This document shows positions 28,194-45,053 of a DNA stretch of 64,000 bases, in pieces. Numbering within the stretch: position 1 is the first letter of the stretch; each line of letters opens with the position of its first letter. Source of the stretch: Sedimentisphaerales bacterium. GTDB lineage: Bacteria; Planctomycetota; Phycisphaerae; Sedimentisphaerales; Anaerobacaceae. A program made the position numbers and the translations under genes. The DNA lies in assembly GCA_963708075.1 (NCBI GenBank), contig OY970194.1, positions 5,024,001 through 5,088,000 on the forward strand, written 5' to 3'. Under the pieces are notes generated by a model. It saw only the letters and a program-made list of their open reading frames with translations. It searched no databases and was not told the DNA's origin.

Positions 28194-29916
28194 TCACGCG
28201 TCGGCGTCGGCGGGACCGCGGGGCGGTTTCTCGACGATGGCGTGGCCCTGTTTCTCGACGACCGGGTGCGGTGCCGGCTTCGCGTCCACCGGTTTGTGGT
28301 TGAGCATTCCGTCGAGGTCCTCGATATCGATGCCGAACTTGCTCAGGATCGGCTTGAAGTCGATGCCCTGGCTCCGCAGGGCGGTGAGAAACTTGAACAC
28401 CGTGTTCGGCACGACGCTGCTGAACTGGTCCATGCCCCGCCCGTTGCCGCCCACGTCGATGATACGCACCTCGTCGATCTGGCCGAGCGGCGCTGCCACG
28501 CTGGAGAAGACGGAGGTCGCGACTTTGCTCATGGCATCGCCGCCCCTGTCCATCAGCATGGGCAGCCGGTCCAGGATCAGGATCATCCGCGCGTCGGAGG
28601 TCATCTTCGCCAGGGCCTCGGCGAGCTGCTTCGTGCCTTCCGCCTCCGCCTTCAGGACCATGCCCTTCTTGGCGGCCTCGCCTTCCGCCTCCGCCACCAG
28701 GGCCTGCTTCGTCTTGGCGGCCTCACCCTCGGCCTCGGCAAGCATGATCGCGCGGGTCTTGGCGGCCTGGCCTTCGCCCTCGAAGACCCTCGCCTGCTTC
28801 TCGCCGTCGGCCCTGCGGATCGCCGCTTCCCGTGCCGCCTCCGCGTTGGTCACGGCCACCTGCTTGGCGGCCTCCGCCTCGATCACCTGCCGGGTACGCT
28901 CCGCCTGGGCGAGCTTGATGACCGTCGCCTCCAACTCCTGCTCCTTGCGGGCGGCCTCGCGCGTCTGGACCTCGATCTGCGCCTCGCGCTCGGCGGCGTC
29001 GCGCTCGCGCCTGTTTGACCTTGAGCGTCTTTTCCTGGTCGGCCATAGCGATGCCGAACGCCTGGTCCGCCTTGGCCTTCTCCGCATCCGCGATGGTCTT
29101 GAACTGCGCCTTCTTGACGTCCCTGTCCCGTTCCGCCTCCGACACCTTGATCGCATTGCTGGCGACGGTGATGTCCGCCTCGCGGTTGCAATCGCTCACC
29201 TTCTTCTTCGTCTCCGCCTCGGCCTGGGCGGTCTTGATATTCGCGTCCCGGATGGCCTCCGCCACCGACTGCTTGCCGAGGGCGTCGATGTACCCGTACT
29301 CGTCGGTCACCTCCTGGATGACCAGCGTGATGATCTGGATGCCGAGGCGCTTGAGCTCCTCCGTGGACTCCTCGACCACCTTCTTATTGAACGCATCCCG
29401 GTCGCGCAGGATCTCGTTGATGTTCAGCTTGCCGATGATGGAGCGCAGGTGGCCCTGGAGGATGTTGCGGACGATCCGGGCGAGCTCCTCGTCGCTCTTG
29501 CCGAGGAACGCGGCGGCCGCGTTGTGCAGCGCCTCCTGCGTCGTCTCGATCTTGAACGTGGCGACGCCCTTGGCGCTGATCTTCACGTTGTCCTTGTTGG
29601 GGATATCGTGCTCGTCGATCTCGACTTGCGTGACGGCGGTGGACATCGGCTGGAAATGCTCGATCACCGGCCACAGCAGGGCGCCGCCGCCAGCGACGAC
29701 GCGGAACCCGCGGCGGGTTATCTTGCCATCCGGGTCGATATAGCGGTACTTGCGGCCGTAGAAAATGCCGACTTCGTTCGGCGGGATCTTCTTGTAGCGG
29801 CTGGCCATCACCCGGATCACGATGATGAACGCCAGTGCGATCAGCAGAATCATCCCCGGCAGCAGCGTCTTGCCAAGAAACGCCATCAGAATTCCGTGCA
29901 ATGGTAACGTGTTCAT
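28194..29916 (-). CDS. Flotillin (SPFH-domain) protein, frameshift near 29010
   Basis: N-terminal TM, GGGALLWPV, LQGHLRSIIG, AEA-rich coiled coil, GQIDEVRIID tail. Confidence 0.88.
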
Positions 29917-29974
29917 AATCCTTGTCTCTCCTGCTAAGAGTTTGCTATTTCAGCCTTCCACCTGCTCCGTGGCT

Positions 29975-30054
29975 GGGTGGTATCAGCACGGCCGAAGGCT
30001 TTGCCGATGGCGAATGTGCGAGCCATCGGCAAGCTGTGCTTGCCGCTGCCACCC
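29975..30054. repeat. Family C palindromic repeat
   Basis: GCCGAAGGCTTTGCCGATGGCGAATG...CCATCGGCAAGCTGTGCTTGCCGCTGCCACCC. Confidence 0.85.
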
Positions 30055-30101
30055 GGAGCCCGGAGACACGGGTTTGAATACCTGGGTATCAATACTCCCG
30101 A

Positions 30102-30644
30102 TCAACCTTCGGCTTTGTCCACGGTCAGGACCGAGCCGCTGACGCCGACGATCCGCACGGCGCTGCCCTTGCCCAGGGCGCCGCCGTGCGCGCGGGCGGT
30201 GAACGTGTGATACTCGCCGCCGAGGGACACGCCGATCTCGCCCATGCTGTCCTTGTCGATGGGCACCGTCACTGTGCCCGTGCATCCGACCAGCGAGTCG
30301 GTGGGGGTCACGGACGACGCCTGCTGCTCGATGAACAGCAACATGATGCCGTACATGAGAGCGGCCAGGACCATTCCCGCCGCGATGCCGATCAGCGAGG
30401 CGATCGGGTAGCCCGCGCCGTAATGCAGGGCGACTGCGCCCGCGGCCCCGAAGCCCATGATGAACGTGGCGATCACCCGCATCGAGAAGATGCCGATGAC
30501 GCCGTGGCTGTCGACGCCGGCCTCGTGGCTCGCGTCACCAAGGTCGTGGTCGAAGCCATGATCGAAGTCGTGGTCGTGGCCGAGCAGGAACCCGCCTGCC
30601 ACAATGATGAACGCCGCAATCGCAATGGCTACGAATATGGTCAT
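30102..30644 (-). CDS. NfeD-like membrane protein (flotillin partner)
   Basis: TM helices with a His/Asp loop and C-terminal OB fold (LVGCTGTVTVPI...GEI...VRIVGV). Directly upstream of flotillin. Confidence 0.82.
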   Translation of the reverse strand: MTIFVAIAIAAFIIVAGGFLLGHDHDFDHGFDHDLGDASHEAGVDSHGVIGIFSMRVIATFIMGFGAAGAVALHYGAGYPIASLIGIAAGMVLAALMYGIMLLFIEQQASSVTPTDSLVGCTGTVTVPIDKDSMGEIGVSLGGEYHTFTARAHGGALGKGSAVRIVGVSGSVLTVDKAEG

Positions 30645-32473: not shown

Positions 32474-33949
32474 TCAATGCACGTCGAGGAGGGAGTTGTA
32501 CTCGCCGTAGGGGTTGAGCTCGGTCCGCTCGTTATAGGGGTCCTGCTGCCACTGGCCGTCGACGACGAGCCGGTAGCGGTAGGTGCCCTGGGGCAGCTTC
32601 ATTTTGAGCTGCCAGACGCCGGAGTCGCCAACCCGCTGCATGGTGGTGGTGGCGGGCTGCCAGTTGTTGAAATCGCCGGCGATTTGGACGTTGCTGGCCC
32701 GCGGATAGAGCGTGACAAAGACGACGGCATCCTGGATCTGGTTGACGCCGTAATAGTCGCTGAGCTTCTCGTCGATCGTCGGGGCAGGCTTCGTGGCTTG
32801 GACCACCGGCTCGACGGCAGGGGTTGCGACAGTGGTCGGGGCGGCGGGCGATGCAACCCGGGCCGGGGCCACTGGGGCGACCGTGGCGACCGGAGCCGCT
32901 GCTGAGACAACAGCGACCTCTGCGGTTGCAGGGACAGCCACTGCCGGGGCCGTTGCGATCGGAATTGCGGCGGGCGGCGCGATGGGAGTCACAGGAGTCG
33001 GTGCGGGAGTCACCTTGTGCGGGTGGACGGTCGTGCTGATCGGGATTGTCTCCAGAGGCTTCGGCGGCTCCGCCACGACGGCCGGCTTGGCCGTCTTGAG
33101 CAGCTCGGTCGCACTGGCCCCGATGGATTCGAGCTGATCGGCCAGCGAGTCCACCAGACGCTTGCTCTTGACCTGCGGATGCTCCGCCGCCCCGATCACT
33201 TCCTGCGCCAGAGATCGGAAATCCTGTTGGCCCTTGCTCGCGGGATCATATTCGCCGATGGGCTGGCCGAAGCTGGCCGCCTCTTTGATCCGGGTGTTGA
33301 AGTTCACCACGGTCTTGAACATGCGGTCGGAGAAGTGGGAGCGGAGCTCGGCGAGGATCTCGCGGGCCATTTTCGTCCGGATGTCGTACATGCTGGCCAG
33401 CACTCGCACGGAGACGTCCTGCTGGCATCGCTTGCAGAGGATGCTCAGCGTCTCAAGCTGCTTGCTCAGCCCGTGCAGGGCGAAATACCCGGTTTCGACG
33501 GGCACCACGACATCGGTCGCCGCCCGCAGGGCGTTAAACGTCAGCAGACTTACCGCCGGAGGGCAGTCCACCACGCAAAAATCATACTCGCCATCCACAT
33601 CCGTCAGGACATTCCTCAGGCAGCACTCGCGATCGGCGATCCCGGCCATCTGCTGCTCGAACGCCGACAGGTCGATACTCGCCGGCGCCAGTTCCAGGCG
33701 CTCCCCGATCTGCCACAGGATCTCCGTCAGCCGCATCGGCTCGCCCCGGCTCTTGCTGATCAGCACGTCATAGATGCTCTGCTCGATTTGCTCCTCAGGC
33801 ACTGCCAGCCCCACTGCACAGTGCGACTGCGAGTCCATATCCACCAGCAGCACACGTTTGCCCAACTCCGCCAACGCGCTGGCCAGATTGATGGACACCG
33901 TGGTCTTCCCACAACCACCTTTTTGGTTCACGATCGCAACTGTTCTCAT
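32474..33949 (-). CDS. ParA/Soj-family ATPase fused via a Pro/Ala linker to a C-terminal AMPK-beta-type glycogen-binding (CBM48-like) domain
   Basis: NQKGGCGKTT, DMDSQ, DCPP, NALRAA. C-terminus AGDFNNW...GVW...GTYRYRLVVDGQWQQDPYN...NPYGEYNSLL. Confidence 0.88.
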   Translation of the reverse strand: MRTVAIVNQKGGCGKTTVSINLASALAELGKRVLLVDMDSQSHCAVGLAVPEEQIEQSIYDVLISKSRGEPMRLTEILWQIGERLELAPASIDLSAFEQQMAGIADRECCLRNVLTDVDGEYDFCVVDCPPAVSLLTFNALRAATDVVVPVETGYFALHGLSKQLETLSILCKRCQQDVSVRVLASMYDIRTKMAREILAELRSHFSDRMFKTVVNFNTRIKEAASFGQPIGEYDPASKGQQDFRSLAQEVIGAAEHPQVKSKRLVDSLADQLESIGASATELLKTAKPAVVAEPPKPLETIPISTTVHPHKVTPAPTPVTPIAPPAAIPIATAPAVAVPATAEVAVVSAAAPVATVAPVAPARVASPAAPTTVATPAVEPVVQATKPAPTIDEKLSDYYGVNQIQDAVVFVTLYPRASNVQIAGDFNNWQPATTTMQRVGDSGVWQLKMKLPQGTYRYRLVVDGQWQQDPYNERTELNPYGEYNSLLDVH

Positions 33950-34675
33950 GTTTGTCTCCGTACACGACCCGAGATTCAGCCGCCGGTCCCTGGCGGCTCC
34001 CCAACCGTCGCAGGCCTTAAAATCCTGCATATCAGCACTGATCCACGCGAATTCACTGCTACAGTCTCTCTTTCGGCACGAATGTCCCCAAAACTTTACC
34101 CTTTTATGGGACGGCCCAATAAAAAGACCCCGAAGGTAGAGAAACCACCCCCTCTTATCGGCCCGTTACCCCCATCCCAACGTCCCACGGCGCCGAGCCA
34201 AAGGTGGAAAGGCGTGAGGGCAAGACGCGTAGGGTGCGCCTTGCCCCACCGCTCTGCCTGTGTTTCAAACCAGGAAGAACACCAGGCGCACCAGGCAAAG
34301 ACCCAGGCTTTGAACCAGCAACGAACAACCAGCAACAGACATAGGACGACTATCCACTATGTGGCAATACCACCTACTGGGTACATGGTGGAACTGGGCA
34401 GGCTGGGCAATGTACACACATGCGTGTCTGATGTCGTTGCGACAGGAGGGTGACAACCTCCAATCCGCAATCGGGCACGCCGCTCACCACTCCCGATTGA
34501 CAGATGCCTTCTCTGTGGCCTCCGCATGCCTGGCGAAAGGTGATCTCTTCTCGCTCACGGTCCGCATGGGCTGAAGCTCATCCTACACCTTCCTTTCGGA
34601 GTCAGCTTCCTTTATGATGGCGGGCGTTGAGTCATGTGGTGATCATCGACTTGGCCGGAGAGAAAGGAGAATGGC

Positions 34676-36664
34676 ATGAGCAAGGTAAATGTCGCTCGGT
34701 TGCGGCTGGTTGTGCCGATCGCGGTGTGCGGGCTCGTCGTGGGAGCGGTGTGGGCGGCGGGACAGGGGGACACGAAGCTGAATCTCCCCATCGCGGCGGG
34801 GCCGTTCCAGCCGGAGTTTGACTCGTTCACGCAGTACCAGTGTCCCGAATGGTTCCGTGATGCCAAGCTCGGCATGTGGGCGCACTGGGGACCGCAGGCG
34901 GTGCCGATGATGGGCGACTGGTACGCCAAGCACATGTACGTCCAGGGACACGTGCAGTACAAGCATCACTTGGAGACCTACGGCCATCCCTCCACGAACG
35001 GATACAAGGACATCATCCCGCTCTGGAAAGCGGAGAAATGGGACCCGGATCGGCTGATGGCGATGTACAAGAAGGCCGGGGCCCGCTACTTCGTCAGTAT
35101 GGGCTCACACCACGACAATTTCTACCTGTGGAACTCGAAACTGCACAAGTGGAACGCCGTGCAGATGGGCCCCAAGCGCGACGTCGTCGGCGACTGGCAG
35201 AAGGCGGCCAAGAAGCAGGGGCTCTACTTCGGCGTCTCCGAGCACCTCGGCGCCAGCTTCACCTGGTTCCAGGACAGCCATAAATCCGACAAGACGGGTC
35301 CGAAGGCAGGCGTGCCCTATGACGGGGCGGACCCGCAGTGGCAGGACCTGTACCACTTCCCCGCCGAACCGGGCGACACGGCGTGGTACAGCACGAACCC
35401 GAAGTGGCAGCAGCAGTGGTTCGATCGGATCAAGGAGTTGGTGGACATGTACCAGCCGGACCTGCTGTACACCGACGGCGGCGTGCCGTTCGGCAACGAG
35501 GTCGGCCGCAGCCTGATCGCGCATCTCTACAACGCCGATGCCGCACGGCACGACGGCAAGCCCCGGGTCGTGTACACCTGCAAGCAGGAATCCAAGGGCA
35601 TGTGGATCGACGACCTGGAGCGCGGCGTCATGCCCGGCATCCGCCCGACGCCCTGGCAGACCGACACCTCCATCGGCGACTGGTACTATAACAAGAACTG
35701 GAAGTATCGCGGAGCCGACTGGGTGATCCACATGCTCGTGGATATCGTCAGCAAGAACGGCAACCTGCTGATCAACGTCGTGCAGCGGCCGGATGGGTCA
35801 CTCGATCCGGAGGCCGAGCAGATCCTTGCCCAAATGGCCGACTGGATCGCCATCAACGGCGAGGCCATCTACGGCACGCGTCCCTGGCTGATCCACGGCG
35901 AAGGCCCGGTCCGCGCCCGGGGCGGTAGCTTCAAAGAGGACTTCGCTTACACCGCCAAAGACATCCGCTTCACAGCCAAGGGCGACGACACGCTATATGC
36001 GTTCGTCATGGGCTGGCCGACGGAGAAACAGATCACGATCCGCTCGCTGGCCAAGCTGCCCGGCGTGGCGGGCAAGATCAGCCGCGTGACGCTGTTGGGC
36101 TTCCGGGGCGAGATCACATGGACGCACGGTGCCGACGGCCTGACGATCCAGGTGCCCGATATGAAGCCGTGCGACTATGCCGTGGCGTTCAAGATCGCAG
36201 GCGAGGACCTGCGCGGCTTCAAACCGGAGCAAGCCGTGCCCACGGCCGGCGCGGTCGTCCAGCCCGATGCCGCCGGCAGATACGTGCTTGCCCCGGACAC
36301 AGTGGACCTGCACGGCAGTCTGCGGGAGGAAACCCGGGGCGGCCAGCTCAACATCGGGTTCTGGGATAATGCGAAGGACTGGGCTTCATGGAAGGTGAAC
36401 GTGAAACAGCCGGGCAAGTTCCACGTCACGGCCAGTTGCGCCACGGTCCATCCCGGCTCGTCGTTGACGGTCGAGGCGGCCGGACAGAAGCTGATGTCCA
36501 ACGCGCCGCAGACTGGGGCCTGGGACAAGTTCCAGGAAATGGACATGGGCACGCTGGAGTTCAAGCAGGCCGGTGAACAGGTCGTGAATGTCCGTCCGAG
36601 CGATCCGCAAACCTGGAAAGCTGTCAATCTCCGCCAGGTGACACTCACCCCGGCAGGCAAATAG
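34676..36664 (+). CDS. Alpha-L-fucosidase (GH29) with C-terminal CBM-like domain
   Basis: PEWFRDAKLGMWAHWG, HHDNF, DIVSKNGNLLIN and NGEAIYGTRPW motifs. Confidence 0.92.
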   Translation: MSKVNVARLRLVVPIAVCGLVVGAVWAAGQGDTKLNLPIAAGPFQPEFDSFTQYQCPEWFRDAKLGMWAHWGPQAVPMMGDWYAKHMYVQGHVQYKHHLETYGHPSTNGYKDIIPLWKAEKWDPDRLMAMYKKAGARYFVSMGSHHDNFYLWNSKLHKWNAVQMGPKRDVVGDWQKAAKKQGLYFGVSEHLGASFTWFQDSHKSDKTGPKAGVPYDGADPQWQDLYHFPAEPGDTAWYSTNPKWQQQWFDRIKELVDMYQPDLLYTDGGVPFGNEVGRSLIAHLYNADAARHDGKPRVVYTCKQESKGMWIDDLERGVMPGIRPTPWQTDTSIGDWYYNKNWKYRGADWVIHMLVDIVSKNGNLLINVVQRPDGSLDPEAEQILAQMADWIAINGEAIYGTRPWLIHGEGPVRARGGSFKEDFAYTAKDIRFTAKGDDTLYAFVMGWPTEKQITIRSLAKLPGVAGKISRVTLLGFRGEITWTHGADGLTIQVPDMKPCDYAVAFKIAGEDLRGFKPEQAVPTAGAVVQPDAAGRYVLAPDTVDLHGSLREETRGGQLNIGFWDNAKDWASWKVNVKQPGKFHVTASCATVHPGSSLTVEAAGQKLMSNAPQTGAWDKFQEMDMGTLEFKQAGEQVVNVRPSDPQTWKAVNLRQVTLTPAGK

Positions 36665-36746
36665 GCCCGCGCCGCCAGGGTCCGCGCAAATGTCACGGGG
36701 GCACCGGGCAGCCAAGAGAAATTCCCGCGAGCGGGGCACTTTGCGC

Positions 36747-36774
36747 TTGACAAAGTGGAAACGGTCGCTACACT
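36747..36774 (+). promoter_or_regulatory. Sigma70-type promoter of the secreted-protein operon
   Basis: TTGACA-16 nt-TACACT. Confidence 0.6.
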
Positions 36775-36870
36775 ACGCGTGCAACTTGGTAGTTAGTTCT
36801 TCACGAATGCGGTAATACGGTGTGGGGTACATAGGGTACGAGCATGGATGCTGCGTGTATGTTCCCACGG

Positions 36871-37090
36871 ACCGGTATCGCCGCTCCCTCCGACGAGCCG
36901 CTGTATCGACCATCCAAGCACCCGGCTGAATCCTGCTCCATCCGCAAGGCGTGTCTGTTCCCGCAGGGGACCAGCGTTTGACGGATGGCGGGGAATGTCT
37001 CAGCCGGAGACGCGCAGGACCCATCGTTATCCCTTTGCATCGGCTGTGCCGACACAAGGGCGGTGCGCCCGCGAGTATAGCGATACCGGT
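36871..37090 (+). ncRNA. Candidate structured RNA / leader element
   Basis: Nested complementary segments: 36871-81 with 37080-90 (11 bp perfect), 36922-29 with 37000-07, 36938-44 with 36982-88, plus a side hairpin at 37031-60. No known family recognised. Confidence 0.4.
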
Positions 37091-37340
37091 GCACGACAAT
37101 TTGGAACGTGAGCCGGAGCGTCTGTGTGACGCCGGCAGAGGACACAACATGGCATAAACGCTTGGAGGGTGTTCCGCAGGGGTTTGCCCAGGGAGGAGGA
37201 GGGTCTCCGCACGCATAGCGCTTCGGGCCCGTGGAGGGCTCGAAGATGGAGGCTGCCGGGAATCGTGAGCTCGCTTGGAGTCGGGCAGGGCTGCCGGGGG
37301 GCTTTTGCGCGGAATGGAGTCATAGTCGTGGGAAAGGAGA

Positions 37341-38582
37341 ATGATGATGAAAAGGATAGTGGCAGCGTCAATTTCTGTCGTGCTGACCGCCACGGCGGCG
37401 TGGAGCCAGCCCGTGAATTCAAACACGGTCCAGAGTACCCAGCAACAGAGCTCGATGGCAGTCGGCGGGGGCAATGCGGATTCGGTCTCCACGGCGATCG
37501 TGGGAGACAACATGGCCACCGCCCAGGGCGGCGTCGGCTGGTCGAACTCGACGTCCGAGGGCGGCACAGGGGTCGCCTGGAGTGACGGGGACTCGGCGGC
37601 CGTGGTGGACATCGACAGCACGTCGATCTCGCGGTACCACAACCACACGCCGCCAATGACGACGTATCCACCCTACCTGCCCCTGTGGAATCACGGCGGC
37701 TGGGGCACGATCAACGCCTATTTCCCCAACGGCCCGGCGGTCGGGGACGGCGCCTACCAGCGCTCGTTCAACCCGTCGGACCCCGAGGACATGCGTGAGC
37801 TCAGACGAATGCTCACTTCGATTCCATACGACGGTCCCCTCAACATGCTCGGCGGTGTACTCCGAGGCGTCGTGACAGCGTTTGGGGGACCGGACTACTA
37901 TCACCGCGGTCGCGGGTTTGAGATCGCCAACGCCCTCGTGCGCGATCGTCGCCCGCAGGGAAAACCGCTCGTGGTGTTCATCGATAGCCTGATCGACCCG
38001 CAGCTCCTCAAGGACAACGGCTACGCCTACGTCGGACGCATGAGCCTGGAGGGTAAGTGGGACCGCAACTGGGACCAGGTGTACAACGCCGCGATTGCCG
38101 AGGCGCTGCCGTGGGACGTGGACGTGCTGCTCATCGCCGGCGGCATGAAGGGCGTCACGGTCGGCTCGAACACCAGCTTCCCCTCCGCCGCCCTGGGCTA
38201 CGCCCAGGAGGATCATTCGCTGTCGCTGTTCGGCGGCAGCGCCAGTGGCGTGACGGAGGGCAAGGGCGAAGCGGTCGTCAGCGCATCGGGCTTCCGCTAC
38301 AGCCCGTCGCTGCTCCAGAAACGACGGATCCCCGAGGACTTGTTCGCGAAGATCCGCCGACCCGCGCCTGCGACAATGGGCGCGGCGCCGACACAGGCGG
38401 CGCTGCCCACGGCCGTGCGGGCCGCGACACCGACGGCCGCAACGGGACCGACCCCGGCCACCCAGGCGCGCCCGGCGGTTTCCGAGACGGCAGCACGCAG
38501 AGGGCCCGGTATCGAGGTGAGCCAGGAACTGTACAACATGGCCGGCTTCACCGGCCAAGTCGACAATGTCATGGTGAAATAG
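37341..38582 (+). CDS. Secreted hypothetical protein with a G/S/Q-rich N-terminal region and a possible YbjQ/DUF4156-like domain
   Basis: Strong SD (GAAAGGAG), signal peptide, pattern YVGRMSLEG...AIAEA...DVLLI...SASGFRY, Pro/Ala-rich tail. Confidence 0.75.
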   Translation: MMMKRIVAASISVVLTATAAWSQPVNSNTVQSTQQQSSMAVGGGNADSVSTAIVGDNMATAQGGVGWSNSTSEGGTGVAWSDGDSAAVVDIDSTSISRYHNHTPPMTTYPPYLPLWNHGGWGTINAYFPNGPAVGDGAYQRSFNPSDPEDMRELRRMLTSIPYDGPLNMLGGVLRGVVTAFGGPDYYHRGRGFEIANALVRDRRPQGKPLVVFIDSLIDPQLLKDNGYAYVGRMSLEGKWDRNWDQVYNAAIAEALPWDVDVLLIAGGMKGVTVGSNTSFPSAALGYAQEDHSLSLFGGSASGVTEGKGEAVVSASGFRYSPSLLQKRRIPEDLFAKIRRPAPATMGAAPTQAALPTAVRAATPTAATGPTPATQARPAVSETAARRGPGIEVSQELYNMAGFTGQVDNVMVK

Positions 38583-38746
38583 CGTCTCCGGGGAACGGGA
38601 ACACGGAGTATGGAGAGCGCCGCGGGGAGAAAGGAGGGCGCCATCCCGCAACGCATGGGGCGAGCATGAATCGCGCAGACCGATTGTCGACGCGTGGTCG
38701 GCGATCCAAAGGACTGTAAGACAGAAGGAAGCGAAAGGAGTTGACA

Positions 38747-39346
38747 ATGTCGAAGGTAGTTGTAGTTTCTATGGTTGTCGCATTATTGGCCGGTTCGAGC
38801 GCATTCGGCGACGTGCCCGCAGCGCTGAGCCAGATCCAGAACACGGACATCGGGTTGACCAATGTGATCGACCTGTTCAATGGGGATCAGGCGGCCAGTG
38901 CTCTGCAGAACCTGGCGGTCCAGAATGACCAGTTCACCAGCAACCCCCACAGCACCTTCGCCAGCCAGGCCCTGTTCGGAATCTTCGCGCAGGTCGGACA
39001 TGCCTCGGGCGACTGCTCGCTCGTGGGCGTGCTGCAAGACCTGGCGACGACCGGCATGCAGGCCCAGATGCTCGATAACGGCATGGGTGCGAAGACGCAA
39101 GGACAGAGCCTGGACCTTCTGGCCACCCAGGGCGTGCTGAAGGCCGAGGGCGCCGGCTCCGGCAACGCGCTCCACCAGCTTCAACTTGCGGCCGATCAGG
39201 AGGGCGGAAATGTCGCCGGGAACATGTCTCAGTCCAGTGCGATCCTCGGGCTGCAGAACGCAGACGTCACCGGCGCCGCCACGGCGACCGGCCAGGTGCA
39301 AAGCACCATGAGCGTGTCCACCGTGCAGAGCCAGGCCACCCTCTAA
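38747..39346 (+). CDS. Secreted Gln/Ala/Gly-rich repeat protein, paralogue 1
   Basis: SD AAAGGAG, signal peptide ending SSAFG, eight Q-x7-Q-type units. Confidence 0.8.
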   Translation: MSKVVVVSMVVALLAGSSAFGDVPAALSQIQNTDIGLTNVIDLFNGDQAASALQNLAVQNDQFTSNPHSTFASQALFGIFAQVGHASGDCSLVGVLQDLATTGMQAQMLDNGMGAKTQGQSLDLLATQGVLKAEGAGSGNALHQLQLAADQEGGNVAGNMSQSSAILGLQNADVTGAATATGQVQSTMSVSTVQSQATL

Positions 39347-39491
39347 GACGGCGGCAAGTCCTGACAGCGCCACAGTCATCCTCGGATGGTGGCGCGGGGA
39401 GCTGATAGCGCACGATCGCCGCATCATGGCGTCACGGGCCTTCGGGCTCGCCGGTCAGGCAAAGGAGTTTGCCGGAAAAGGAGTTGAGATT

Positions 39492-40082
39492 ATGCGTAAA
39501 GGATGTGCAGTTGCAGCGGTGCTGGTACTGCTGCTGTCATCTGCGTCCCTCGCCGCAATTGGCCAGACCCAGGGCTTCGTCCTGGACAACACACATGCCA
39601 TACTCACCACCGGGCCGGACGGCGCCGCCACGAACACCAACACCCTGATCGTAGCGCAGGACCAGTTGGCCATCGATGCGGGCGGTCATGTCCTTGCGTT
39701 CCAGGGTGAGACCGGCTCGCTGGTGCAAAGCGCCGGTGCTGCCGCCATCACCGGGATTCTTGGCGTGGTGCAGACCGGACTCGGGTTCGGCGCCCAGGGC
39801 CAGGTGCAGAATGGCTCGGGCTTCGATCTCGGGACGCAGCTTCAGGATCTCGATGCGAATCTGTCCCAGAGCCTCATCGGCGACGGGCTGGGTTCAGCCC
39901 TGGGACTGCAGAACTTCGTGGGATTTCAGACACAGATGGTCTTCACGATCTACGGCGCCAGTGCGAACAGCCAGGCCATCGGCGTTTCGCTGGCCGATGG
40001 CCTCGGCCGGCCCACGCCGGGCGCCGGCACGATTCTCAGTGCCGCAAGCGATATCGGCCTGACTCAACTAGGCGCGCAGTAA
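39492..40082 (+). CDS. Secreted Gln/Ala/Gly-rich repeat protein, paralogue 2
   Basis: SD AAAGGAG, signal peptide ending ASLA, aligns unit by unit with 38747-39346. Confidence 0.8.
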   Translation: MRKGCAVAAVLVLLLSSASLAAIGQTQGFVLDNTHAILTTGPDGAATNTNTLIVAQDQLAIDAGGHVLAFQGETGSLVQSAGAAAITGILGVVQTGLGFGAQGQVQNGSGFDLGTQLQDLDANLSQSLIGDGLGSALGLQNFVGFQTQMVFTIYGASANSQAIGVSLADGLGRPTPGAGTILSAASDIGLTQLGAQ

Positions 40083-40502
40083 TCTGCTTCACATCGGTGA
40101 TTGCCGGCAGGCGGAGCCCGACAGGATTCCTGCACAGGCTCGCCTTGCCGCACGCCTCTGGTCGGACGGATGGACGCAACGTCGCTCCGATCGACGGGAC
40201 AGCCAGCCCCCGACCAGAGGCTTCTTCTTGCGCCCGGCACGATCCCCGACGGCGCAGTAACGGTCCGCGCATATCCCCGTCCTATATAGTGAAGGTGCGC
40301 ACGGCACACCCTGTGAGCTCTGTGCGGTGAGGTGCCCTTCCCGGGAATCGGCCGGCCGGGTGGCCCTGCAACGCCGGCGGAGCTTGAACGCAAGGTGTCG
40401 AGCGGTTAAAATGATGGTGAGTTCTGGCGTAGAACTCAAATCCCGACGAATACGTAAGAATAAGATAGTGGTGTGCAGGGCACACGCTACGGGAGACTGA
40501 AC

Positions 40503-41447
40503 GTGACGACTGCGCGAGTGCAAAACCCGCTCCTGGGGCCGCTGAAGGAGAATCTCCAGAGTGTCATCTATGGCAAAAGTGACTCGATCGACGTGCTGAT
40601 CGTCGCGCTGCTGGCGGGCGGGTCGGTACTGATCGAGGACGTCCCGGGGGTGGGCAAGACGACGCTGGCCAAGGCCCTGGCCAAGAGCATCGACGCACAG
40701 TTCCGGCGGATTCAGTTCACCCCGGACCTGCTTCCGGCGGACATCCTGGGCTCTTCCATCTATAACCCGGTCAGCGGGGAGTTCCGCTTCGATCCGGGGC
40801 CGATCTTCTGCAATATTCTGCTGGCCGACGAGATCAACCGGGCCTCGCCCAGGACGCAATCGGCGTTGCTGGAGGCGATGAATGAGGGTCAGGCGACTAT
40901 CGAAGGCGAGCGGCGGCCGCTGCCCCAGCCGTTCCTGGTAGTCGCGACGGAGAACCCGATCGAGTTCCACGGCACGTACCCCCTGCCGGAGGCGCAGTTG
41001 GACCGATTCCTGATCCGGCTGGCCATCGGCTATCCGGCGGCCGACGTCGAGGTCGATATCCTCAAGTCGCACGCCCGAAGCCACCCGCTCGACGGGATCG
41101 CACCTGTGCTCACGCTCGAGCAGATCCGTCAGATTCAGAAGGAAGTGTCCGATATTCACGTGGATAACAATATCCTCGAATACATTGTCGAGATCATCCA
41201 CGCGACCCGGCACGACAACCGGCTCGAGCTCGGCATTAGCACGCGCGGCTCGCTGATGCTCTCGCGGGCGGCCCAGGCACGCGCGTACTTCGTCGGCCGT
41301 GACTTCGTGATCCCGGATGATGTCCTGTGGCTGATCCCGCACGTGCTGCCGCACCGCGTCATCTTGACCTCGAAGATGCGATATGACGGCGCGACAGCTA
41401 GGCAGATCATCGGCGAGATCGTCAACAGGGTCAAAGTACCGGTATAA
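40503..41447 (+). CDS. moxR: MoxR-family AAA+ ATPase
   Basis: DVPGVGKT, RIQFTPDLLPADI, LADEINRA and GTYPLPEAQLDRF motifs. Confidence 0.93.
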   Translation: MTTARVQNPLLGPLKENLQSVIYGKSDSIDVLIVALLAGGSVLIEDVPGVGKTTLAKALAKSIDAQFRRIQFTPDLLPADILGSSIYNPVSGEFRFDPGPIFCNILLADEINRASPRTQSALLEAMNEGQATIEGERRPLPQPFLVVATENPIEFHGTYPLPEAQLDRFLIRLAIGYPAADVEVDILKSHARSHPLDGIAPVLTLEQIRQIQKEVSDIHVDNNILEYIVEIIHATRHDNRLELGISTRGSLMLSRAAQARAYFVGRDFVIPDDVLWLIPHVLPHRVILTSKMRYDGATARQIIGEIVNRVKVPV

Positions 41448-41454
41448 AGGGATA

Positions 41455-41560
41455 TCAAGAGTCAAAATGCAAAAATCAAGATGACAAGTCAAAGATCAGG
41501 AGTAGGGGGCGTCGCGCAGCAACTCCGCAGTTTTGACTTTTGATGTTTGATCTTTGATTC
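41455..41560. repeat. Inverted pair of degenerate heptamer arrays (TCAAAA-like / TTTTGA-like)
   Basis: tcaagagtcaaaatgcaaaaatcaagatgacaagtcaaagatc ... ttttgacttttgatgtttgatctttgattc. Confidence 0.65.
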
Positions 41561-41580
41561 TCTTCCGGACCGATAAAGCT

Positions 41581-42798
41581 ATGGCTATCGTTGATGAAAA
41601 GCTGCGTTTCGGGTTCACTGAGGCAGGCCGAGTGATCCTGCGAGGGATGGGCTTTGTCGCGCTGGCGGCCTTCATCGTGCCGGCGTTCGGCGTGCTTTCC
41701 ATCCTGGTTTGCGTTCTGCTGACGGCTCTGCTGCTCGGCTTTCTCGTGCGGCCGCGGGTTCGCATCGATGGCCACCTGCCCGGCCGCGTCGTTGCCGGCC
41801 GGACAACGCAGCTCACGTACGTGCTCAGGAATGTCGGCCGTTTCCCGGCCTATAACCTCTGGGTGGGCTTCACCGCCCTGCCGCAAGCCATTGAACAGAT
41901 CGGCAGTGAACATACACTGCCCCGTCTCGCGCCCGGCGAAACCGCGCAAGTGACCGTCACAATCCGCCCGACTCGCCGGGGCTGCTATCGCATCGGTCAC
42001 CCGGTGTGCCGGTCGGGGTTTCCATTCAACCTCCTGTGGTTCGGCGTATCGCGTGAAGGCGAGGAGAGCTTAATCGCCCTGCCGGCGTTCTCGCGGCTGC
42101 AAATGCCGCTGCGACGGCTCAGTCGGTACGCGCAGACCGCCGGCATGAGACTGGCCGGCCGGACCGGCGTTTCACCGGAGTACATCGGCAGCCGCCCGTT
42201 CATGCGCGGCGACTCGCCCCGGCACATCGACGCCCGCGCCTGGGCCCGTCTGTCAGTGCCCGCGACCAAGGAATATGACGAGGACTGCGACAATTACGCC
42301 GCCCTTGTGCTCGATACCTGCATCCCTGATACTGCCACAAGGGACAAGTCCGGGCAAATCGATGAGCTTGAGGCGGCCGTCAGCCTGTGCGCCTCGGTGG
42401 CTTTCACAATGCACAGCAGTCACTTCATAGATCTGCTGCTGGCCGGTCCCGAGCTGCATGAGTTCAGCGGCTGGCCCCGCGAGGCCCGGCTGGACAGAAT
42501 CCACGAGCTGCTTGCGGGCGTGGAACCATCCCAGGCGCCCGCCAACGAGCGGGCCGTCATGTTCATGCTGGACCGATTTCGTGAGATGTCACAGGTTGTG
42601 TTCATCCTGCTCGGGTGGACGCAGACTAATCAGCAGTTGGTGGAGCTGGCGGAACGCGCCGGCTGTCATTGCACCGTCGTCCTGATCGGCGACTCGAAGG
42701 CCGCGCGAGTGAGCGAAGATCGGGCTTCCACGTGGGCCGGGACTGTCCGGGTCCTCTCGCCCCAGGAGATCCTGTCAGGACGGATGAAGCAATTATGA
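41581..42798 (+). CDS. DUF58 domain-containing membrane protein
   Basis: EYIGSRPF..GD..RHID...AR, KEY, LVLD and EAAVSLCAS motifs. Follows moxR. Confidence 0.88.
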   Translation: MAIVDEKLRFGFTEAGRVILRGMGFVALAAFIVPAFGVLSILVCVLLTALLLGFLVRPRVRIDGHLPGRVVAGRTTQLTYVLRNVGRFPAYNLWVGFTALPQAIEQIGSEHTLPRLAPGETAQVTVTIRPTRRGCYRIGHPVCRSGFPFNLLWFGVSREGEESLIALPAFSRLQMPLRRLSRYAQTAGMRLAGRTGVSPEYIGSRPFMRGDSPRHIDARAWARLSVPATKEYDEDCDNYAALVLDTCIPDTATRDKSGQIDELEAAVSLCASVAFTMHSSHFIDLLLAGPELHEFSGWPREARLDRIHELLAGVEPSQAPANERAVMFMLDRFREMSQVVFILLGWTQTNQQLVELAERAGCHCTVVLIGDSKAARVSEDRASTWAGTVRVLSPQEILSGRMKQL

Positions 42799-42828
42799 GA
42801 AGGATTCTGATGCAACGCGTCTCGATCC

Positions 42829-42908
42829 GGGTGGCAGCGGCAAGGCCGAAGGCTTTGCCGATGGCGAATGGGCAAACCATCGGCAAGCTGCGCTTGCCGC
42901 TGCCACCC
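42829..42908. repeat. Family C palindromic repeat
   Basis: Full-length copy GGGTGGCAGCGGCAAGGCC...CTTGCCGCTGCCACCC. Confidence 0.88.
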
Positions 42909-42952
42909 GAAAATGCGTAAGAAGTGAGAATAAGAACTCATCAGCGATTGGT

Positions 42953-45053
42953 ATGAAGACGCAAAAGGCCATAGCGACGGTGATGATCGTGGCCGGCTCG
43001 GTGCTGGTGGCAGCCGTGTTCCGGGATATTGCCTTCCCGGCGATCCTGTGCATGCTGGGTCTGCTCGGCCTGCAGCGGCGGTTCACCTGGCACATCCGGC
43101 CGGAGCGACGCGTCATCACCTCCCTGCTCCTGCTGCTGCTGGCGATTTTTTTCGCCGCCCACTACACGTACGCCGGGCTCGCCAGCCGGGTGGCACAAGA
43201 GCAGGCTGCCATCGCGGCCTGGGGGACGATCTCTCGCTACTTCCTGGCCTCGATGATCCTGATCCTGTTCCTTGGCTCGCGACAACGCCTTCCGCCGTCG
43301 CTTGCATTGTTCTATATGGCCACGGTCGTATCCGCCGGGCAGGTCCTGTTGCTCAACGACCTGTACACGGCCTTTCGACTGCTCGAAGCCCTGTCCGTGA
43401 TTCTCATCGTGCTCTACGCCGCCCCCGGCCGGATTGGCGACATCGGCCTCGCGCGGACGCAGGAGGCTCGCACCCAGGGCCGTACGTCTTTGGCCTTTGC
43501 GGCTGTCTCCTCCGCTCTTCGCTCCCGCCGCACCGTCGCCACCGGGCTCGTCCTGCTCCTGGCCGTAAACCTCGGCTGGATCATGGCCTCCGTGCTGTAT
43601 CGTCACGTGGAGCTGCTGAACTACATGCCGGTCTGGCTCTGGCGCAGCGGCGTCGGCCTCGACGCTCCCATCGACAACACCGCCTATGTCGGCTTTTCCA
43701 CAAGTGGCGAACTGTCCAGCCTCTTGTTGATCAAGGGCGATCAAGATACCACGGTCGCGCTGAAGATCATCTCGGACAACAATCCGGGGTATCTGCGGGC
43801 GCGGGCATTCGATCTCTATCGGCCGTCGACATGGGCAGAGGTCTCGCACGGCGACGCGATCGAGCCCAGCCAGAACACGTCGCTGGGCGGGTACTTCGTG
43901 GGCCGCATGAACCAATTTCGCCTGAGCAGGCAGACGGATGTGCGGACGCGGGAGATGATGGTCCGCCATGAGTCGCGCATCCCCGACGTCATGTTCACGC
44001 CGCTGGGCACGCTGTCCGTCGAGGCGCCGCTGCCGGTGCTGATGTACGACGACGACGGCATCGTGTCGGCCCCGAGAGGGCGGACGAGTCCGAACTATCG
44101 AGTCGCCTATGCCGACCCGACGTACGCCCCGCCGCCGACGCGTCCGATGCTCGGCGTGCCGCCGCAATTGGATCCGCGGGTGCGGCAACTGTCCGATAAA
44201 ATCTTCGCCAACTGTACCACGACCGCGGAAAAGATCAAAGCGGTCATCGATCACTTTCAAGCCAACTACACCTATTCGCTGGGCCTGACCGTCCCGCCCG
44301 GCCGGGACAAGCTCGAGTACTTTCTGCTCGAAGCGTCCACCGGCTACTGCGAGTACTTTGCCTCGGGGGCGGCGATCCTGCTGCGTCTGGCCGACGTGCG
44401 CACCCGATACATGACGGGCTTTCTCGTGACGGAGAAAGACGCCGACGGCGAGGCGTGGATCGCCCGGAACATGGACGCCCACGCGTGGGTCGAAGCCTGG
44501 GACGAGGAGAGCCGCCAGTGGACGATTGTCGAGGCCACCGTGCAGGATGGCCTTGCCACGGCGTCGCCGGACGAGGAATCCAGTGAGGCGGGCGGTCTGA
44601 GCCGGTACCTGCTGTTTGGGCAGCTCCTTGACGACCTCTATGAATATGGCCTCTTCGGCGTCCTTGCCTGGGCACTGCAGTTCTACGGGCTGCCCGCCAT
44701 CTCATTCCTGCTGGCGACTACTTTTGTCGGCACATCGTGGTGGCTGTACAGGCGAGCCCGGGCCAGGCACAGACGCCGCTCCGAGCGGCCGCTCGCGCCC
44801 GAGCTCGTCGCTCTGCACAGGGTGCTGGCCCGGATGGACCGCCGCGTCAGGACCGTCGGACTGCGACGCGAGCTCGAATGAGACCCTCCAGGCATTCGCC
44901 CAGCGTCTCCGCATTAAGGACACCGGCGACGGACTCTGGGCCAATGTCTCCGACTGGTACCTCGAATACGCCGACCTGCGCTACAGCCGCATCATCTCGC
45001 CCGACCGTCTGCACCGCCTTCAGCACCTCGCCGTCCTGCTGCAGCAGCCGTGA
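42953..45053 (+). CDS. TgpA-like membrane transglutaminase-domain protein (DUF3488 + TGase + DUF4129-like tail), frameshift near 44870
   Basis: N-terminal TMs, YLRARAFDLY, GYCEYFAS, AHAWVE. The tail NETLQAFA...YLEYADLRY continues in another frame to 45053. Confidence 0.85.

Follow-up and report, generated by a model that had tools for sequence, protein, structure and literature searches.

The 64,000-nucleotide stretch of Sedimentisphaerales DNA analyzed here (the window) includes a conserved cluster of three genes, named P3, A, and B, that, judging from the predicted structures, probably builds a secreted cross-β, amyloid-like surface polymer distinct from curli and Fap. The structure, order, and conservation of the genes, the paralogy of A and B, the conserved glutamine columns in their alignments, and the absence of family matches are direct observations. 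The initial annotation had presented A and B as a two-gene system, overlooking the conserved upstream P3 that is part of it. P3 (37341-38582, + strand) encodes a 413-amino acid protein with a signal peptide and no cysteine and is located directly upstream of A (38747-39346, +), which encodes a 199-amino acid protein with a signal peptide at approximately residues 1 to 21 and eight predicted long β strands. B (39492-40082, +) encodes a 196-amino acid paralog of A. A σ70-like promoter candidate, which is a consensus match only (36747..36774, +; 10 of 12 positions), is found 5′ of the cluster, and the transcription unit likely ends at 40154..40221 (+), where a 12-bp perfect inverted repeat is followed by a T-rich run (folding z of the region, −3.8). 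The Shine-Dalgarno sequences, described before as strong, are AAGGAG in both subunit genes (38735..38740 and 39478..39483, both +), 6 to 8 nucleotides 5′ of the starts. The 11-nucleotide sequence that includes this motif is identical upstream of A (38734-38744) and B (39477-39487), and a similar one also precedes B in many relatives. A minus-strand ORF (38783-39427) overlapping A was read as its shadow. An Rfam search of window positions 34000-41000 detected nothing, and one tRNA was detected in 13 loci.

Signal peptides had been claimed for both subunits, and a hydrophobic N-terminal stretch can be recognized by eye in each. The mature proteins are, as had also been reported, rich in glutamine and nearly devoid of Trp, Tyr, Arg, and Lys (A: W0, Y0, R0, K2, and 12.9% Gln; B: W0, Y1, R1, K0, and 10.9% Gln), a composition similar to that of functional amyloids. 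In the window, mature A has one cysteine and mature B none. The mean net charge of types A and B is about −8, while proteins of the C type are neutral, with about 10 Lys/Arg.

The order of the genes was determined in the 68 of 80 P3 loci that extend at least 1.5 kb downstream, the other 12 being too short and therefore dropped. A subunit gene is the next one after P3 in 66 of these 68. The arrangements found were P3-C (34 loci, C being a single-gene type), P3-A-B (16), P3-A-B-A-D (7, D being a short type), P3-A-B-D (2), seven single variants, and P3 alone (2). Thus, a single C-type gene stands in for the A-B pair in approximately half of the loci, and copy number grows up to A-B-A-B-D. On a quick P3 tree there are five changes between the C and A-B arrangements, at least two of them forced by starred branches, and one genome harbors two tandem cassettes, P3-C followed by P3-A-B (L014/L166). 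Where A comes first, B follows in 30 of 30 loci, the ribosome-binding sites of the two genes are similar, and C replaces the pair in about half of the loci. The proposed division into a major and a minor, nucleating subunit would agree with these features no better than a 1:1 A/B heteropolymer or a B with a capping or anchoring role. A major subunit plus a nucleator may nonetheless be present, as A is often duplicated and the A-B spacers are structured in relatives (mean folding z −2.3, 15 of 29 below −2, values obtained without control regions); the spacer of the window has a folding z of −0.8.

Type D paralogs consist of 120-140 amino acids, with the first two or three strands retained and a terminal tail rich in Leu, Gly, and Met (e.g., L012:9090-9461, L049:5259-5651, L052:4127-4540, and L060:6741-7103; proteins P0166-P0216). 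They are usually encoded by the last gene of the larger clusters and are candidates for a cap or anchor. Orphan subunit genes, away from P3 and in unrelated neighborhoods, were found at L176-L184, L186, L187, and L189. Conversely, four genomes have a strong P3 match and no subunit match, and the P3 genes at L064, L079, L084, and L087 belong to genomes in which the subunit was not matched and are not followed by a subunit gene within 4 kb.

The three-gene cluster was found in one family of Sedimentisphaerales. P3 was detected in 22 of 23 other genomes of the genus, and in 20 of 68 genomes of the family as compared to none of 132 genomes from other families of the order; class and phylum samples outside the family gave only marginal matches. 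Among 150 genomes of the family, P3 was present in 47 (one weak) and the subunit profile in 45 (two weak): 42 had both, 5 only P3, 3 only the subunit, and 100 neither, as compared by hand assuming that both tallies come from the same draw. The homologs appear to come from Sedimentisphaerales/Phycisphaerae MAGs, many of them deposited as "uncultured Pirellulales", one as Aegiribacteria, and one as an archaeon. The P3 loci L137 and L140, deposited as Candidatus Aegiribacteria and archaeon, may reflect mis-binning or transfer.

The neighborhood of the cluster includes a gene for a ParA-family ATPase that carries a CBM48-like domain as a C-terminal fusion (32474-34030, −). Of the 58 loci that extend 4 kb or more upstream (L091-L170), 40 have a gene of this kind near the cluster, usually in the same orientation; the one in the window has the opposite orientation, and a fucosidase gene separates it from the cluster. 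A set of genes coding for a MoxR AAA ATPase, a DUF58 protein, and a transglutaminase-like protein follows the cluster (40473-44881, +) and was not seen downstream in the relatives inspected. The region 28194-30644 (−) includes what we take to be flotillin/SPFH-like and NfeD-like ORFs, the former apparently split over two frames.

A and B had been interpreted as paralogs that align unit by unit and are built of approximately 22-amino acid Q-x7-Q units. The paralogy was confirmed by profile-profile comparison, using either deeper homologs (99.6%, E 6.9e-24, in an alignment that proceeds unit by unit and takes in the signal-peptide columns) or close homologs (96.4%), while BLASTP of A against B gave nothing significant (best E 1.3). 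As judged by sequence, A and B are real genes and distant paralogs. All 14 units listed are present (A residues 31, 54, 74, 97, 120, 143, 162, and 186; B residues 27, 50, 71, 94, 118, and 140), and the strict Q-x7-Q spacing is found in only five of those in A and four of those in B. Strict counts in the single sequences were not above those in shuffled ones (p = 0.115 for A and 0.10 for B). The conserved glutamine columns autocorrelate at lags 23 (z 4.1), 31, 45, 2, and 8 in the A family and at lags 46, 44, 2, 8, and 22 in the B family; the pattern is significant across homologs and not in one sequence alone. The notion of a 22-amino acid repeat was not sustained at the sequence level, since neighboring units are not repeats of each other and six of the eight unit profiles best match the unit four positions away.

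Searches among 659 and 4769 candidates identified 34 homologs of A and 38 of B, respectively. The A profile compared with 1.84 billion representatives gave 160 matches, of which 150 were listed; the 147 new ones among these all had one of types A-D as best local HMM (A 118, D 16, C 12, and B 1). No match of the subunits past the curated cut-off was found in Pfam, NCBIfam, PHROGs, or PDB sequence searches, and the PDB search with profile A1 gave zero matches; no soluble family or solved structure resembles A or B by sequence. The label "opacity protein-like surface antigen" carried by 2 of the 38 B homologs has no Pfam or NCBIfam support and was not adopted. The ESM Atlas gave one unnamed match to A, at 0.75. 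Neither tblastn nor profile searches detected further copies in the genome, and no longer or fused forms were found in the range of 393-2000 amino acids, which is weak evidence. Internal expansions do occur: in P0086 (282 amino acids) strands 4-7 are repeated, and P0156 (384 amino acids) includes three profile stretches.

An AlphaFold model of A, generated with an alignment of 127 A sequences, is all β (pLDDT 95.5, pTM 0.82), with strands at 6-23, 26-44, 50-88, 95-134, 137-155, and 161-177 (model numbering; adding 21 gives protein numbering). To identify which strands pair, covariation was analyzed in an alignment derived from 331 sequences of types A, B, and C, in which a gap filter left 327 of the 349 aligned hits (effective number, 199). 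Among 1092 diagonals, those with the six highest scores were all antiparallel (strands 3-6, z 9.5; 4-5, 6.5; 1-4, 5.9; 6-7, 5.8; 1-2, 5.2; and 5-6, 5.0; background spread, 1.2). When six topologies were scored by the mean z of their hydrogen-bonded pairs, a stack of β-arches scored 5.9, a one-sheet meander 4.6, a jelly roll 4.4, a 4+4 sandwich 4.3, curli-like parallel rungs 2.1, and a 45-amino acid parallel solenoid 1.9, the lowest pair being 3.5 in the arch stack and 1.5 in the jelly roll. The arch stack ranked first in all three sequence sets, with 5.5 for A alone, where covariation and AlphaFold rest on one common alignment, and 3.1 versus 2.9 and 2.2 for the B+C set, which shares no row with the AlphaFold alignment. 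These scores clearly disfavor the parallel models and modestly disfavor the other antiparallel ones. The best fit, by a modest margin, is therefore inferred to be four β-arches of about 45 amino acids forming two sheets, 1-4-5-8 and 2-3-6-7, predicted to pack against each other with a hydrophobic stripe in between and Gln/Asn ladders on either side of the stripe. This topology would also tolerate the repeat of strands 4-7 in the 282-amino acid variant. Each 22-amino acid unit would then correspond to one long strand antiparallel to its neighbors and not to a curli-like rung.

The suggestion of a β-rich protein with glutamine ladders agrees with this model, in which the ladders reach both open edges. 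In the arch-stack register, sheet 1-4-5-8 has the ladders Gln29-107-118-196, Gln31-105-120-194, and Asn39-Gln97-Gln128, and the other sheet Gln62-74-151 and Gln54-82-His143-Gln170; each position of the first two is Gln or Asn in 8-10 of 10 sequences of type A. On edge strand 8, Gln194 and Gln196 are nearly invariant and lie at the height of Gln31 and Gln29, respectively, on edge strand 1, which is what the model predicts for a ladder continuing from one subunit to another. Covariation signals between edge strands at the stacking register were also found (1-8, z 3.1; 2-7, z 3.7, and 5.1 in A alone), although indirect coupling through the sheet would give the same register, and the signals are therefore no proof of stacking between molecules. 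Nearly all A sequences (165 of 166) and C sequences (69 of 71) have strand 8 filled, as compared to only 55 of 90 B sequences. The insect chorion amyloid, in which monomer prediction differed from the cryo-EM fibre fold (PMC13252134), calls for caution with such models.

A curli-like parallel β-solenoid, with the 22-amino acid unit or the 45-amino acid pair as one rung, would account for the glutamine periodicities of 22-23 and 44-46 and for the co-occurrence of Cys68 and Cys90 at a spacing of 22, but it is the least probable of the alternatives considered given its low topology scores, the stronger antiparallel signal in all seven adjacent strand pairs, the 18-residue strands of the model, and the absence of a curlin match. 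A polymer of elongated jelly rolls (1-8-3-6/2-7-4-5) is more in keeping with the data, if still quite unlikely. Bacillus endospore appendages are made of jelly-roll subunits joined by β-augmentation, and a similar design here would explain why the residue sums of the pairs 3-6, 4-5, 2-7, and 1-8 are all 224-225, as would be the case if a single long hairpin were wound up; its mean score rises to 4.8 in A alone, and GH11 jelly rolls appeared in the fold search at Z 5.0-5.6. Against it, the required pair 4-7 is weak (z 1.5-1.7), the monomer leaves the 1-4 signal without explanation, DSSP shows a break of two residues between strands 6 and 7, with the Gly-ended turn motif typical of hairpins, and a tandem repeat of strands 4-7 exists. 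The endospore-appendage family had no Pfam match to A or B.

The fold searches with A returned only generic four-stranded long sheets of MACPF/gasdermin pores, none at Z ≥8 (best row, Z 7.3, rmsd 2.7, 88 aligned; matches spanning model residues 24-158 or 1-178), and two unnamed matches in a viral fold library (TM <0.4, rmsd >30) were discarded as generic long sheets. The top rows, pore-state sheets at Z 6-7.3 over about 90-96 residues with rmsd 2.5-3.3, raise the idea that the subunits are staves of a large membrane β-barrel. This is very improbable, as the matches cover one sheet only at 3-10% identity, the MACPF or gasdermin core domain is absent, and the outer faces are 21-27% hydrophobic (41% for one face of B, in whose family the outer face of sheet 2 is more hydrophobic) and 3-10% aromatic, the hydrophobic stripe being located between the sheets. 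Alternatively, A and B could be soluble periplasmic or secreted β-sandwiches forming a closed dimer (A:B or C:C) that binds glycans or other ligands, with P3 as the surface partner. The confident, compact monomer model, the strict pairing of A and B, and the glycoside hydrolases encoded nearby in a polysaccharide-degrading lineage would suit such a function, which we nevertheless regard as unlikely: there are hardly any Trp, Tyr, or charged residues to make a binding site, conservation is centered on the inward glutamine ladders with both edge strands included, the gene copy number rises as far as A-B-A-B-D, and the sequence searches point to no soluble family or solved structure.

Most cysteines are found in end loops (317 of the 399 in the A alignment). 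Cys68 and Cys90 occur together in 64 sequences, alone in 1 and 24, and neither in 38, counts in which kinship is not controlled; a cysteine in the 2-3 hairpin is nearly always accompanied by one in the 3-4 arch at the opposite end. Among proteins with two cysteines, only 5 of 13 pair the arch end with the hairpin end. The pattern would suit links between ribbons, the two-cysteine proteins showing no preference for this pair. A specific Cys68-Cys90 bond was not accepted as established because the two-cysteine proteins do not single it out.

P3 is conserved at 45-57% identity, far above the subunits. It includes an N-terminal Gln/Asn strand and a Ser/Gly-rich segment, followed by a core, and has in addition a helical region, a Pro/Ala/Thr linker, and a conserved C-terminal motif. 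The core alone is confident in the model, whose mean pLDDT is 59.5. Foldseek found nothing at E 0.001, the PDB sequence search gave weak matches only, the ESM Atlas gave none, no Pfam family, CsgG included, matched P3 above the curated cut-off, and P3 was not found in viral contigs. In the VIA search, FvfA was on top for the core (Z 6.3, rmsd 3.6, 90 aligned), followed among others by RcsF (5.3), DUF74/YbjQ, and YdgH-type rows, all weak (Z <8); RcsF/YbjQ/YdgH-type small proteins, whose rows presumably represent one common fold, account for 13 of the 15 top rows. The P3 core aligns with RcsF, YbjQ (DUF74), YdgH, and FvfA over 70-90 residues at Z 4-6.3. Unlike them, P3 has no lipoprotein cysteine, shares 8-15% identity, and adds the N-terminal Gln/Ser/Gly segment, the helical region, and a long conserved hairpin. 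The latter (approximately residues 272-305) is amphipathic, Gly/Ser-rich, and inserted in the core. Its hydrophobic positions alternate, Tyr is nearly invariant in two columns (39 of 40 in each), and its pLDDT is below 50 in the monomer model. By analogy with CsgG, the segment has the appearance expected of a barrel-forming hairpin in an oligomer. The weak RcsF/YbjQ-like match together with the conserved amphipathic hairpin makes P3 a candidate channel or anchor; a role as nucleator is also a candidate.

If the cluster builds a cross-β polymer as proposed, the subunits would be exported by the Sec system and would then pass through, or dock on, a ring of P3. P3 would oligomerize, its hairpin forming a barrel or membrane anchor, and would act as outer-membrane channel or anchor. 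The subunits would stack edge to edge, strands 8 and 7 of one subunit pairing with strands 1 and 2, respectively, of its neighbor, so that the ladders continue. The product would be a two-sheet ribbon about 6 nm wide with a rise of about 19 Å per subunit. A and B would co-assemble in a heteropolymer while C-type loci would give homopolymers, and the loop cysteines of many relatives may cross-link the ribbons. In anoxic sediments and digesters, such a polymer would likely serve in attachment or aggregation or protect the cells as a surface layer.

The well-studied amyloid systems of Gram-negative bacteria are curli and Fap, each with its own export pore. That A and B match neither, as first suggested, was upheld for the curlin repeat, the spacing, the export genes, and the parts of the Fap operon. 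Curlin (PF07012) was absent from A, B, 32 A members, and the whole genome, with a positive E. coli control; the conserved glutamine columns had no lag-11 peak above z 2, as would correspond to the curli QX10Q spacing; and no CsgG, CsgE, or CsgF is linked to the cluster, the four PF03783 matches in the genome being partial and at least 0.4 Mb away. Curli and Fap are described as β-solenoids with different motifs and export genes (PMC12822426, PMC10903470), and the curli repeat has two N-x-ψ-x-ψ-x-Q motifs with QX10Q spacing (PMC12822426). Like curli, the cluster encodes secreted, Gln/Asn-laddered paralogs beside a candidate outer-membrane partner, and an A/B strand resembles a lengthened polar-x-hydrophobic-x-hydrophobic-x-Gln motif. 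Unlike those of curli, the A and B motifs have a spacing of 8 within a strand and of about 22 from one strand to another, their strands are predicted to be antiparallel, and P3 is not CsgG-like. Fap is described as a system in which three Greek-key repeats and their linkers are accompanied by a C39 protease and a barrel, FapF (PMC12822426, PMC10903470). It shares with P3-A-B the organization of paralogous subunits and an export or assembly partner in one operon. However, the A model has eight contiguous strands without linkers, and neither a FapF barrel nor a C39 peptidase is found at the locus, which is flanked by the fucosidase gene and the MoxR/DUF58/transglutaminase set.

A closer architectural parallel may be the sheath protein of Methanospirillum hungatei (SH/MspA), which is described as having two antiparallel sheets joined by six β-arches and as polymerizing into rings by β-augmentation (PMC10593813); the hoops of archaeal sheaths are described as linked by disulfides (PMC6242892). 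A and B share with it a signal peptide (recognized by inspection) and, if the arch stack is correct, would also share antiparallel sheets joined by β-arches and polymerization by β-augmentation. They differ in having a predicted four long arches instead of six, no cap domain, glutamine ladders in the core, a bacterial host, and a linked partner gene with paralog pairs, while MspA is not in an operon. The SH row was absent from the PDB fold searches with A, whose library may lack an SH model. No homology to SH was detected, and A and B are proposed to be built like the sheath protein and not to be members of its family. A further reading, that the cluster is a bacterial counterpart of the archaeal sheath in which arch ribbons, exported by a new channel on an RcsF/YbjQ scaffold, are wound into a tube, sheet, or cell-encasing layer, has a small but real chance of being correct; in the same tentative picture, the arch ends of the ribbons would be joined to hairpin ends, with disulfides as the link in many lineages.

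The P3-A-B cluster is apparently undescribed so far, as no description of it, nor of amyloid in Sedimentisphaerales, was found in a literature search that left most subscription journals outside its reach. The portion available of a review on Planctomycetota mentions stalks and fibres and no such genes (PMC12673574). If the proposed polymer is real, it would be a third, independent amyloid design besides curli and Fap, based on antiparallel arches and an unrelated partner protein, and one that switches between one-subunit and two-subunit versions. A 2024 survey reported no structural homolog of the archaeal sheath protein in Bacteria (PMC11576556), so that a bacterial sheath-like protein would bear on how often cross-β surface layers have originated. 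The subunits are small and easily expressed, which makes the proposal amenable to direct testing, and a new protein material could result. The cluster would also provide a concrete gene candidate for the surface structures of an abundant and mostly uncultured lineage of sediments and digesters.
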